Shown here in pieces: positions 5,682 to 9,399 of a stretch of 64,000 nt of DNA. Within the stretch, counting starts at the first letter, position 1, and each line of letters opens with the position of its first letter. The notes beneath the pieces were generated by a model. That model did not search any database. It had not been told where the DNA came from and saw only the letters and a list, made by a program, of their open reading frames with translations. Made by a program: the position numbers and the translations under genes. Source of the stretch: a virus; the IMG/VR virus record IMGVR_UViG_3300023215_000707, positions 1,150-65,149 of that record. One strand, written 5' to 3'.

Positions 5682-6524
5682 TCACCATTCCCACATTCCG
5701 GCGTTTTGTGCAGTATCACAAATTCCAATGAAAGAACAATACTGGCATTTATTATAATAATATTCAGCAGGGAATAAATTTTGTTCATAAGAATATATTA
5801 TTGTTGCAATCCTTTTAACTACATCATTTTCATTTCTAGTCTTTACCTTTTCTACATGGAAATAATTTGCGGCAGGGAAATACCAACCCCAATGAGTCAC
5901 AGGGGAAAGTTCACAATCAGGGTCATTATCCATTAAAATTTTATAGAAAGCCATTTCCTTTCGCATCCCTGTTGCCTTGCGTGGTTTCCAAACACCTGTT
6001 TTAAATTCAACAGGTATGTAACCATCCCCTTCAAGGAAAATTCTATCAATAATACCCTGTAAATGCACAACATAATTTCTAGATAATTCAAATTTAGGGT
6101 TAGCATCTTTAGGGATAATCACTTGAGCATTACATTTTAATTCATTACCAACAGGGAGAAAATCTCCTATTGAATCTTTAGAAGCAAGAAATCTTTCGGC
6201 TTCAAATGTAGCCATTGTTTGATACATTTCTCCATAATCATCTATTGGAAATAACCCCATACAATATTCATATAATGGTTGTTGTGATAACCCTTCTGCT
6301 TTTTTAATATCAAAATTATTATAAAAATGTTCATAAGAATTGTGAATTACTGTTCCCTTTATCATGGCAGGATTAGGTTCTGTTTTTCTACGTTCAATAT
6401 AACTAAATTCATATTGCTTTCTACAAAATTCAAACGTATTCAATGATGATTTCGTAATCTTTAATATGGGCATTGAAGGGTCACTAGCCCATTCATGATT
6501 CCATTGATATGTGTATTCGCTCAT
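5682..6524 (-). CDS. Cas4-like PD-(D/E)xK exonuclease (solo)
   Basis: KSS..TFEFC.KQY, GIIDR..VEFKTG, C-terminal CQYCSFIGIC Fe-S motif; start MSEYT at 6524 overlaps the upstream stop. Confidence 0.85.
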   Translation of the reverse strand: MSEYTYQWNHEWASDPSMPILKITKSSLNTFEFCRKQYEFSYIERRKTEPNPAMIKGTVIHNSYEHFYNNFDIKKAEGLSQQPLYEYCMGLFPIDDYGEMYQTMATFEAERFLASKDSIGDFLPVGNELKCNAQVIIPKDANPKFELSRNYVVHLQGIIDRIFLEGDGYIPVEFKTGVWKPRKATGMRKEMAFYKILMDNDPDCELSPVTHWGWYFPAANYFHVEKVKTRNENDVVKRIATIIYSYEQNLFPAEYYYNKCQYCSFIGICDTAQNAGMWEW

Positions 6525-6691
6525 TTTAATCCCTCTTTCCAATTATTTATCATTTCATCTAACCCTACCATAAAATCAACTATATGATTTTGAATTTTTT
6601 CTATTTCTTTTAATTTCAAAGTCAAAGAATTAATTTTAGATTCTAAATTTTGTAAATGTCTTTTATCAGTTGGTGCTTTTTTCCAAAACAT
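6521..6691 (-). CDS. Small coiled-coil protein (56 aa)
   Basis: Hand-translated MFWKKAPTDKRHLQNLESKINSL...; fills the gap exactly with overlapping start/stop. Confidence 0.6.
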   Translation of the reverse strand: MFWKKAPTDKRHLQNLESKINSLTLKLKEIEKIQNHIVDFMVGLDEMINNWKEGLK

Positions 6692-7611
6692 TAAAACCAC
6701 TCCTTCAATAATTTTTGTTTATCGTCAATTTTACACTTAGATATATCCCAATTCATTGCATCAAAGACTGGCTTTACCTTTTTTATTACTTCGGATTCTG
6801 CTAAGAAAACCCAATCTGGATTAAAATTATCTAATTCGGGCAGAAGCCTTACACCAATATACGATGCTGGTTTTCTTTTCCCGTTCCAATCTGTATATGT
6901 TTCACCATTTAATTTACACTTTAAGTAATAAAATGAATCTGTTAATTTATTGTCGGGATTAATATGTTCATCATAATAAAATTGACCAGCACTACCCCCA
7001 CCAAAAACAGGGTTTTTACCTTCTAAGGTTTTACATTTATTCAATCTAGCATTGCACCTTTCATTTTCACATGATGAATCTGGAATAAGATTGAGAAGCC
7101 TTTTCAAGTAATCCACTTTATATTTTTTCCGACACCTAGAACATTGTAATTCTAATCTATGGGCTTGTATTCTTTTTCTTTTAACTAAATCTTCTTTAGA
7201 TATTTCTTTATCAAGAACAGCATTATACTTTGATTTAACATAAGAAACTATTTCTTCTTCTGTTTTTTGATTAATCCACATTTCTATTGTTTTCTTCTGA
7301 ACTTCTTTACCAGTATTAGATTCTGCAATTCTTTTCAATGAAAAACCAGTGCAGACAAATTCTGGTTCACTAAGATAGATACCATCTTTCCAAATGATAT
7401 ATCCTGCATTTTTATTTTTAGTAGTGCCTACCCCTAATACTGAATAGTATTTTTCAAATTCTAATTCTATTGGGTGAATATCTAAACCCATAACATTTGG
7501 AAAAACATTTTCTTGAATGTGGTTGTTTAATATATCTTTAATTTCTTCGGCCTTTTCAACAGAAGGTATGGGAATATAAAGAGAATCGGTATGAGCATAA
7601 ACTATTTTCAT
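6691..7611 (-). CDS. polB: Family B DNA polymerase, C-terminal subunit (motif C, palm/thumb)
   Basis: YAHTDSLYI (motif C variant), LEFEKYY, K..Y.G, PEF..TGF; own GGTGA RBS. Confidence 0.9.
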   Translation of the reverse strand: MKIVYAHTDSLYIPIPSVEKAEEIKDILNNHIQENVFPNVMGLDIHPIELEFEKYYSVLGVGTTKNKNAGYIIWKDGIYLSEPEFVCTGFSLKRIAESNTGKEVQKKTIEMWINQKTEEEIVSYVKSKYNAVLDKEISKEDLVKRKRIQAHRLELQCSRCRKKYKVDYLKRLLNLIPDSSCENERCNARLNKCKTLEGKNPVFGGGSAGQFYYDEHINPDNKLTDSFYYLKCKLNGETYTDWNGKRKPASYIGVRLLPELDNFNPDWVFLAESEVIKKVKPVFDAMNWDISKCKIDDKQKLLKEWF

Positions 7612-7615
7612 TAAA

Positions 7616-7747
7616 TCACCTATTCAAATATTTACTCAAAGGGCTAAATGAAATACTATTAACTCTATTAATGGTTAAATCAATTGAAGATTCATCCAAT
7701 TGATTTAGAAGTGAGGCGCAATCTCCTTCATGGATAGTATTAATCAT
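7616..7747 (-). pseudogene. Relic of an N4/N6 DNA methyltransferase (43 aa, internal deletion)
   Basis: MINTIHEGDCASLLNQLDESSIDLTI matches the usual MTase N-terminus just before the (T/D)SPPY motif, then runs into NRVNSISFSPLSKYLNR*. Confidence 0.7.
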
Positions 7748-9399
7748 TCTAATTCCCTCGCCTTGAATGCTACTTCTCTAATGGCTTCTCTAGCACTAGC
7801 AGTAATACTAGCCGCCAAATCAATATCATACCAACCAAATCCTCGTAAAGCGGTTGCGCCATAGATTGATGCTAATAATCTTTTTACAGCCATTTGCATT
7901 GAGTTCCATTTAACATATTCTTTTCTATTATCATTTTGTAATGCTTCTAACATTTTAGATTTATATTCTGCTCTTAATGGTTTTAGTGTAAGAATCATAT
8001 TAGGTAGTAATCCTAATTTATCAGTCTTATAATATTTCCAATCATATTCGGTAACTTTAGAAAAATCTCTAGGCGTTTTAATGTTCACTTTCAGTTCAGT
8101 TTCACTTTCACTTTTAGTTTCAAATGAGATGTTCCGAGCCAAAATGCAACTAGGATAAAGAGATGCAAAATCTAACGCCGCTACACCAAGCCACAACCCA
8201 TTAGTTTTTTCATCTAATGGATTGTAAATCATTGCGCCATCATATTTTATTTTATCTCCATATTCTCCAGTTGGTGCTTTCCACCATGCGTTTCTCATGA
8301 AATATACGCTACCCATATGTGATACAAAAAAACAATCTTCAAAAGGGGCTTTAACTAATTTTTGAATTGCTAAAATTCCTTCACTAAGCCCCATCTCTTC
8401 ATCTATCTTATAGAGTAATTCAGCATCTTGAATACAATATTCTAAATAATTTGTAGTATCTTCAAGCCACGCCTTCATAAAAAATTCATTTCTATCTGTA
8501 AATTTAGATTCTTTCTTTTTACCTTCACCAACAGATACACTAGCGCAATATTCTAATGATTGACTAGGTAAAGTTCCCCGCTGAGAATCCATCCATTGAC
8601 GTTCAAAAGCCAAATCAAGATTAAGACAAATTCTTCCCTTGATAGGTTGGTCGATAGACCCATAACTAATATCACCTAATATCTTATGACCTACATTTTT
8701 AACTTCATTATATGGAGATAACTTTCTAGGATTTAGACCATTAGCATGAAGCCTTTCTATTAGTTTTGGAATATCGGATTGAAGCCCCCACCAAGCAATT
8801 AACATATCGGGGTCTTGTTCTTGCATATCCTTTACAAATGCTTCAAGCATTTCTTTTTCGGAATCAAATGCACCTGTGGAATTTAGAGCAATTATTTCAT
8901 CTTCAGGAAACCAAGTGTATAACTTACTTTCATTAGTATAATTATCATAAACAGCAATACAAGTAATAGCCTCTTCATGTTCATGTCCTTCGGGCAACCA
9001 TTCCATATCCCAATACCATTTACGCAATTCATATTCGGGAACTTTCTTTAATTCATCTACACAATAACGACGCAGAATAGGCACATCTCCTTCCCATGTT
9101 GCGGCAAATTTCTTCTTTGCTGAATACATATCCTTTGGGTTGGAATAAAAAACCTTAGTTAGAGATTGCCCTTTTAGATTAATCCATTTCCCTTTTTGAT
9201 ATTTGAAAAATCCAGTTTGTTTAACTGGTTTATGTCCTATCATTTTATGACTAGTTGCATAGGTATCTATTTGTGAATCTATTGCTCTAATAAAAAAATA
9301 GGGCTGAAAATTATTTATTATTTTTTCTTTACGTTCCCTATGCTCATCTCTCCATCTAATCTTAACAGACTTATCAGCATCAGTCCAACAAATAATCAT
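7744..9399 (-). CDS. polB: Family B DNA polymerase, N-terminal subunit (exonuclease, motifs A and B)
   Basis: ExoI WDMEW, ExoIII YCIQD, motif A DFASLYPS, motif B KRLLASIYG; ends before motif C. Confidence 0.92.
   Translation of the reverse strand: MIICWTDADKSVKIRWRDEHRERKEKIINNFQPYFFIRAIDSQIDTYATSHKMIGHKPVKQTGFFKYQKGKWINLKGQSLTKVFYSNPKDMYSAKKKFAATWEGDVPILRRYCVDELKKVPEYELRKWYWDMEWLPEGHEHEEAITCIAVYDNYTNESKLYTWFPEDEIIALNSTGAFDSEKEMLEAFVKDMQEQDPDMLIAWWGLQSDIPKLIERLHANGLNPRKLSPYNEVKNVGHKILGDISYGSIDQPIKGRICLNLDLAFERQWMDSQRGTLPSQSLEYCASVSVGEGKKKESKFTDRNEFFMKAWLEDTTNYLEYCIQDAELLYKIDEEMGLSEGILAIQKLVKAPFEDCFFVSHMGSVYFMRNAWWKAPTGEYGDKIKYDGAMIYNPLDEKTNGLWLGVAALDFASLYPSCILARNISFETKSESETELKVNIKTPRDFSKVTEYDWKYYKTDKLGLLPNMILTLKPLRAEYKSKMLEALQNDNRKEYVKWNSMQMAVKRLLASIYGATALRGFGWYDIDLAASITASAREAIREVAFKARELE

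Follow-up and report, generated by a model that had tools for sequence, protein, structure and literature searches.

A stretch of viral DNA of 64,000 nucleotides (nt), positions 1,150 to 65,149 of the IMG/VR virus record IMGVR_UViG_3300023215_000707 and called here the window, carries a family B DNA polymerase (PolB) encoded by two separate genes, with an open reading frame (ORF) of 43 amino acids (aa) between them. This ORF was confirmed to be an N6/N4 DNA methyltransferase gene gutted by an in-frame deletion, and very close relatives of the virus still carry the intact gene at the same place. Across 56 distinct slots the break in the polymerase is fixed while its contents vary, from nothing to about eight genes, which supports its reading as a gene-insertion slot. 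The coordinates of the features discussed are given in Table 1. An earlier note on this DNA, made by a model without database searches, had pointed out the split and the 43-aa ORF and had suggested what each might be; how its claims fared is told below with the results that bear on them.

The methyltransferase relic

When 5.8 billion sequences were searched with the relic, the search being limited to longer proteins, a single match was obtained: P0001, a protein of 270 aa with an N6_N4_Mtase domain (PF01555). At E = 6.6e-10 this resemblance greatly exceeds what chance would give. Residues 1–26 of the relic are identical to the first 26 of P0001 at 22 of 26 positions, and residues 27–43 are identical to its last 17 at 15 of 17. 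The earlier note had recognized a methyltransferase N-terminus in the first 26 aa, stopping just before the SPPY motif, and in this it was right; the match at the other end had not been seen. What is missing is therefore a segment of 681 nt (227 codons, methylase codons 27–253), with residues 1–26 and 254–270 retained. The lost segment includes both TSPPY (motif IV), which begins right at the joint, and the S-adenosylmethionine (SAM)-binding motif DPMCGSGTT. The 5' part closes at ...IDLTI, one codon short of TSPPY, and both catalytic motifs are gone, so that the 43-aa product, as judged from its sequence, cannot methylate DNA. The joint lies at window positions 7669–7667, where the blastn segments stop and start, with a microhomology of at most 1–2 nt.

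No Pfam family matched the 43-aa ORF, and the PHROGs gave a weak match (E = 0.033) that would by itself be too weak to decide. Together, the hidden Markov model (HMM) and sequence evidence back a methyltransferase origin. The parent has motif IV toward its N-terminus and the SAM-binding motif toward its C-terminus, and it resembles the beta-class N6/N4 DNA methyltransferases, both by PF01555 and by matches to CcrM-type NCBIfam models that fall below the curated cut-off. Unlike the members of that class, the relic holds neither motif and is a pseudogene remnant; in itself it is a case of ordinary gene decay. A copy derived from a methylase gene resident elsewhere was also considered and was ruled out, since no other PF01555 gene was found in the virus record.

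At its end the relic reads aataGGTGAtttaATG, and its TGA stop forms part of the GGTGA motif that precedes the start codon of the downstream polymerase gene. The coupled arrangement described in the earlier note, with an ATGA overlap at one end and GGTGA at the other, was read directly from the sequence. Neither element is peculiar to the relic: the intact methylase gene of locus L162 shows the same ATGA overlap on the stop codon of the upstream half, and in L007, L162 and L164 the gene after the intact methylase is likewise preceded by GGTGATTTAATG.

Table 1. Features of the split polymerase locus, in window coordinates
Feature	Position	Strand	Description and evidence
PolB-N, 551 aa	7744..9399	minus	ORF list; Pfam PF03104 and PF00136; Deep Vent alignment; 551-aa calls in independent contigs
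PolB-C, 306 aa	6691..7611	minus	Remainder of palm and thumb; Pfam PF00136; Deep Vent alignment
43-aa relic ORF, 132 nt	7616..7747	minus	Methyltransferase gene with in-frame internal deletion; E = 6.6e-10 to P0001
ATGA overlap	7744..7747	minus	Relic start codon on PolB-N stop codon; sequence read directly
Relic 5' part	7670..7747	minus	Methylase codons 1–26; ends one codon short of SPPY (motif IV)
Relic 3' part	7616..7669	minus	Joint (7669–7667), then last 16–17 methylase codons and stop
GGTGA Shine-Dalgarno-like motif	7616..7620	minus	4 nt upstream of PolB-C ATG; its TGA is the relic stop

In Tara Oceans contigs the P0001 gene lies directly behind a PolB-N gene, and longer contigs with the intact methylase were obtained from other members of the 90% cluster of P0001. 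In L162 and L163 the order is PolB-N, methylase, the gene for a 140-aa membrane protein, and PolB-C, while L164 and L165 have a 47-aa zinc-ribbon gene between PolB-N and the methylase and, between the methylase and PolB-C, an allele of the membrane gene coding for 80 aa. The intact methylase is also found between the polymerase halves in L167–L170. The closeness of these viruses to the window is considerable, PolB-N and PolB-C of L162 having 98.2% and 99.0% DNA identity with their counterparts. Between the relic and the intact gene of L162, 2 of 78 nt differ in the 5' part and none of 51 in the 3' part, and with a distance of only 2 of 129 nt the deletion looks recent. The intact alleles are under purifying selection, with ratios of nonsynonymous to synonymous substitution rates (dN/dS) of 0.16–0.31.

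The membrane gene is also missing from the window's slot. The loss begins at the ATG following GGTGATTTA and extends to the one following GGTGATGAATAA, and AATG is common to both junctions of this loss. In the L164 lineage, a GGAATT repeat flanks the 47-aa gene. Methylase relatives 45–80% identical were also found in IMG/VR and Joint Genome Institute (JGI) contigs with no PolB nearby, which shows merely that the gene family is widespread. Two further searches returned nothing: GenBank phages were queried by blastn with the entire locus, and IMG/VR was scanned for an exact pattern from the beginning of the gene located after the methylase in L007.

The relic is a real allele, as independent assemblies bridge it without mismatch. 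The identical 43-aa product was found on nine contigs from several samples and assemblers (sources include SRR7467835, SRR24309842 and JGI 3300022693), always between the PolB halves. In addition, Logan contigs of runs from other studies, that is, assembled contigs, were placed on the window, and a contig from X3 (4169 nt, depth 47) and one from X4 cross the entire relic with zero differences. The earlier note had named two findings that would overturn its interpretation, a lack of methyltransferase similarity by HMM and the collapse of a full-length methylase during assembly, and neither was borne out. In favor of such an artefact it may be said that full-length alleles occur in related, slightly different populations and that contigs from X6 and X12 break at the joint. 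Those from X6 diverge from the window sequence at 7669; of the two from X12, one passes from PolB-N across the ATGA overlap and codons 1–26 into the methylase interior (...ITSPPYDNL), and the other leads from PolB-C backward through the last 17 codons and on into ...EYCEIAR. Because the loose ends from X12 read methylase interior, they point to a full-length allele at this same position that seems to lack the membrane gene; such a form would yield the relic by a single deletion. Against a collapse stand the same joint in all nine contigs despite their different assemblers and samples, the two Logan contigs that span it, and the lack of any collapse-prone repeat at the joint, and we give this explanation next to no chance.

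Two polymerase halves and the slot between them

The claim of the earlier note that PolB is split between motifs B and C was confirmed by Pfam and by tiling on the Deep Vent polymerase. PolB-N begins with an ATG, the same start that was called in independent contigs (an alternative TTG start 10 codons upstream is unlikely), and carries the exonuclease domain (PF03104), motif A (DFASLYPS) and motif B (KRLLASIYG, with Ala where Asn is usual), ending in ...FKARELE. PolB-C begins with MKIVYAHTDS, which includes motif C (YAHTDS). The break hence falls after motif B and four residues upstream of motif C, and the exonuclease domain and motifs A, B and C are all found across the two products. On the profile PF00136 (DNA_pol_B), PolB-N covers positions 39–194 and PolB-C positions 222–365. 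PolB-N was aligned with Deep Vent polymerase over chain residues 18–525 of the latter, its residue 543 being opposite 525, so that residue 551 is extrapolated to about residue 533; PolB-C residue 2 is opposite residue 536, which puts its start at about 535. Since the halves abut, they tile a family B polymerase without loss or surplus, and no leftover residues were seen at the break relative to this uninterrupted PolB. As the earlier note had stated, there are no intein motifs, and Pfam gave no match to Hint, intein or LAGLIDADG domains in either half. Both halves are under purifying selection relative to relatives (dN/dS 0.09–0.22; PolB-C 0.10–0.22), and the enzyme is presumably put together from two polypeptides without protein splicing.

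PolB-C also contains a Cys-rich stretch (CSRCRKKY...CENERC) at window positions 7040–7180 of the minus strand, residues about 145–190, with weak Pfam zinc-ribbon and PHD-like matches (E 0.03–0.12). It may represent an insertion in the thumb region that binds zinc.

Scanning IMG/VR with PolB-C and PolB-N gave 86 loci, none of which has a fused PolB gene. In every locus with both halves the break is invariant, PolB-N ending at query residue 550/551 and PolB-C starting at residue 1, and this holds down to identities of 52% for the N half and 36% for the C half. The loci represent 56 distinct slots (the window and 55 others) with gaps of 2–2207 nt. In L026 and L043 the slot holds no gene, and PolB-N and PolB-C either overlap (ATGA) or abut (TAATG). 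Filled slots hold up to about eight genes, or a maximum of six when short and overlapping ORFs are dropped. The earlier note had proposed comparing the inter-half gene across magroviruses; this yielded 46 sequence clusters of cargo at a constant break point.

Among the recognizable cargo are HNH nucleases of two kinds, one of them endonuclease VII-like (eight slots), a CoiA-like nuclease (two slots), a PDDEXK_3 nuclease (one slot), MazG (three slots) and a DUF2061 membrane protein (one slot, L006), with small zinc-ribbon and other uncharacterised proteins in many slots. All 10 of the HNH and CoiA-like nuclease genes lie directly behind PolB-N, and the PDDEXK_3 gene is second in its slot. Slot genes are tightly packed: 90 of the 175 junctions are 4-nt overlaps, and 145 fall within −8 to +10 nt. 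In one pair of loci a nuclease gene is present or absent on a nearly identical background: PolB-N of L031 and L032 is 99.2% identical and their slots differ by exactly one HNH gene of 503 nt, directly downstream of which the identity falls to 95.6%. Although a single case, this is a hint of a mobile endonuclease gene, for which co-conversion of the flank would be expected to leave such a trace.

When the similarities of the two halves were compared between loci, no pair was found with strong discordance (N half at least 90% with C half below 75%, or the reverse), and a mild discordance was seen in L029, which is nearest to L039 in the N half (88%) and to L026 in the C half (91%). Together with the drop in identity between L031 and L032, this hints that the slot might act as a recombination boundary between the PolB halves.

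Two slot contents of another sort were noted. In L029:7620-9827 (= L005:1793-4000), the slot is filled by a single ORF of 735 aa whose product matched no Pfam or PHROG family; our impression, and nothing firmer, is that its C-terminus (...LGYNLIIKWECD) resembles restriction-endonuclease-like (Vsr/DUF559-type) ends. Furthermore, a family of proteins of about 85 aa (83–86 aa; MxRHKIxKxRINKEA...NNYPN...WxW), also with no family match, is the third most frequent cargo cluster. Six diverged slots (L062, L056, L057, L064, L068 and L063) carry it as their sole cargo, in L060 it is the first of two genes, and its role may be tied to the polymerase.

In the surface ocean, magroviruses rank with the most abundant viruses that infect archaea, and none is known to be in culture. 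The virus studied here appears from its genes to be of the magrovirus type. Of the features of group B it shows the split polymerase and a chaperonin gene (PF00118), the latter as in magroviruses; the ribonucleotide reductase large subunit was not found in the record, which is 78% complete. As expected, the isolates whose PolB comes nearest, with an identity of about 25%, belong to the haloarchaeal tailed viruses. In Methanothermobacter thermautotrophicus the two PolB halves are unlinked in the genome. According to its text on the polymerase, the paper of Philosof et al. (2017; PMC5434244) reports a split PolB without intein in seven group B magroviruses, where it serves as a group marker, and this matches what the earlier note had said of magroviruses. 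The same text puts the magrovirus split within the catalytic domain, close to the positions where archaeal PolBs are split or interrupted by inteins but not coinciding with them, and describes the split PolB of Methanothermobacter and the intein-interrupted euryarchaeal PolBs as divided in that domain at a similar, not identical position. Group B magroviruses thus have the same two-gene, intein-free PolB of a marine archaeal virus as found here. In that account the region between the halves is marked without a description of its contents, the word methyltransferase is absent from the paper, and a 2023 magrovirus survey does not treat the inter-half region. The split is already published. The turnover of cargo, the nuclease genes in the slot and the methylase relic are described here, and the novelty is the view, at the population level, of a hypervariable slot within an essential gene.

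Among systems that have been studied, the nearest analogue is gene 43 of the T4-related Aeromonas phages 44RR and 25, which is split into 43A and 43B, the products of which co-purify and are active (Petrov et al.; PMC2988022). A short untranslated spacer separates the two in 44RR, and a free-standing homing endonuclease gene of the seg type does so in phage 25 (PMC2988022). The likeness consists in a PolB of the same broad clade being encoded in two cistrons, an instance of genes in pieces, a concept in which free-standing endonuclease genes do the splitting. In the 44RR record, gp43A was found to end about 95 residues past motif A, with motifs B and C in gp43B; the break is there between motifs A and B and here between B and C, and the two are independent events at different sites. 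Unlike the phage loci, the magrovirus slot is clade-wide and holds dozens of mostly non-nuclease gene families.

Origin of the slot and fate of the relic

The explanation that we favor, and to which as a whole we attach high probability, is that of a magrovirus-type PolB in two genes, an old and fixed break serving as a landing and exchange site, and a recent deletion in the methylase. The polymerase would be a two-subunit enzyme whose break is old and fixed in the clade. Free-standing nuclease genes of the homing-endonuclease type probably made the slot and would still come and go there. Accessory cargo (methylase, MazG, zinc-ribbon and membrane proteins) would ride in the same polycistronic, overlapping chain from PolB-N to PolB-C. 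In the lineage of the window, the slot would recently have held the 270-aa N6/N4 methyltransferase and, to judge from the nearest relative, a membrane-protein gene as well. The membrane gene would have been lost between two junctions of a Shine-Dalgarno (SD) motif and an ATG, and the 681-nt in-frame deletion, with almost no microhomology, would then have removed SPPY and the FxGxG-type SAM site. That the ends of the methylase stayed is probably due to what they carry, namely the PolB-N stop codon, which lies in the ATGA overlap, and GGTGA, the ribosome-binding site for PolB-C. As the polymerase needs these signals, a viable deletion would have had to be internal, and as it was in frame, ribosomes would still terminate 4 nt before the PolB-C start.

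Several points weigh against this explanation. A recognizable nuclease is present in only 11 of the 55 other distinct slots, and the slot of the window itself has no nuclease gene, so that homing is suggested by the relatives only. The X12 allele is known only from loose ends of 20–30 nt, and the order of the two events, loss of the membrane gene and deletion in the methylase, is deduced from few alleles. Finally, one deletion in three keeps the frame by chance, and the frame alone therefore carries little weight.

This last point bears on the proposal of the earlier note that the relic is retained as a bridge for translational coupling, in which ribosomes leaving PolB-N would translate the 43 codons and re-initiate on PolB-C, balancing the two subunits. 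The ATGA overlap at the 5' end and the stop codon just ahead of the PolB-C start suit such a role, the other two frames would stop about 30–50 nt earlier, and the slot genes of relatives form a nearly always unbroken chain of overlaps. On the other hand, a relic 2 nt away from an intact allele is too young for selection to show, and with nine contigs of one identical sequence effectively a single lineage has been sampled. L026 and L043 couple the halves directly across an empty slot, PolB-C has a GGTGA site of its own, and close gene overlaps look general in the replication module, being found beyond the slot as well in the one relative contig that was read for them. Because the relic is recent, selection on it is unreadable. 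The insertion slot of the earlier note is supported by the 56 slots; its coupling bridge is possible, and we rate selection for coupling as rather unlikely. A function of the 43-aa peptide itself, for instance as a small regulatory protein, has scarcely anything to recommend it: the ORF is intact, its start and stop codons are well placed, and nine contigs carry it unchanged, but it is a chimera made from both ends of the methylase and differs by 2 nt from the parent gene, every catalytic motif is gone, and no other lineage was found with it, the search having returned only the protein itself.

An alternative origin of the break is an intein that once occupied the motif C intein site known from archaeal PolBs and has since decayed, with the cargo arriving later. 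Many euryarchaeal PolB genes do carry inteins in polymerase motifs, and the break is within a few residues of motif C, a position that the polymerase text of Philosof et al. (PMC5434244) calls similar; the same text calls the positions not identical. Moreover, neither half has an intein or Hint signal, the halves abut on the Deep Vent polymerase with no residues to spare, and the nucleases of the slot are free-standing HNH and PD-(D/E)XK genes instead of LAGLIDADG intein modules. We regard descent from an intein as improbable and prefer free-standing nuclease genes as the source of the slot.

A broader reading, for which we see about even chances, is that the break is a long-lived, clade-wide island of accessory genes within an essential gene. 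It would have been seeded and kept open by nucleases, its cargo (anti-restriction methylases, MazG, membrane and zinc-ribbon proteins) would make use of a safe and well-expressed site, whole genes would be gained and lost at SD-ATG junctions, and the slot would double as a recombination boundary. On the present findings, the published split polymerase is more than a curiosity: its break is a busy exchange site for strain-level differences such as the possession of a methylase or none. Intact allele and relic occur in viruses 98–99% identical, and this pair offers a natural experiment on how much a methylase helps a virus against host restriction; the empty, nuclease-bearing and cargo-bearing slots provide material for testing how free-standing nuclease genes split essential genes.

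Neighboring replication genes

Downstream of the split polymerase, an ORF of 59 aa (window 6521–6700, minus strand) overlaps the end of PolB-C and is kept in relatives (e.g., L001:4912-5091). The next gene (5682–6542, minus strand) encodes a Cas4/PD-(D/E)XK-type exonuclease (phrog_69; PF12705 in relatives), and the order PolB-C, 59-aa ORF, exonuclease is kept across the clade.

Directly upstream of PolB-N, a gene for 257 aa (9401–10174, minus strand) has a weak match to phage sliding clamps (phrog_947, E = 2.7e-4). In the L164 lineage, which is 93% identical to the window, an ORF of 50 aa was called between this clamp gene and PolB-N (L164:4075-4227), and PolB-N was called 12 codons longer (563 aa; L164:4170-5861), which may reflect a difference in start site or another small insertion point. 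A clamp-loader-like AAA gene lies further upstream in L162, and with the clamp-like gene it looks like part of a T4-like replisome block.

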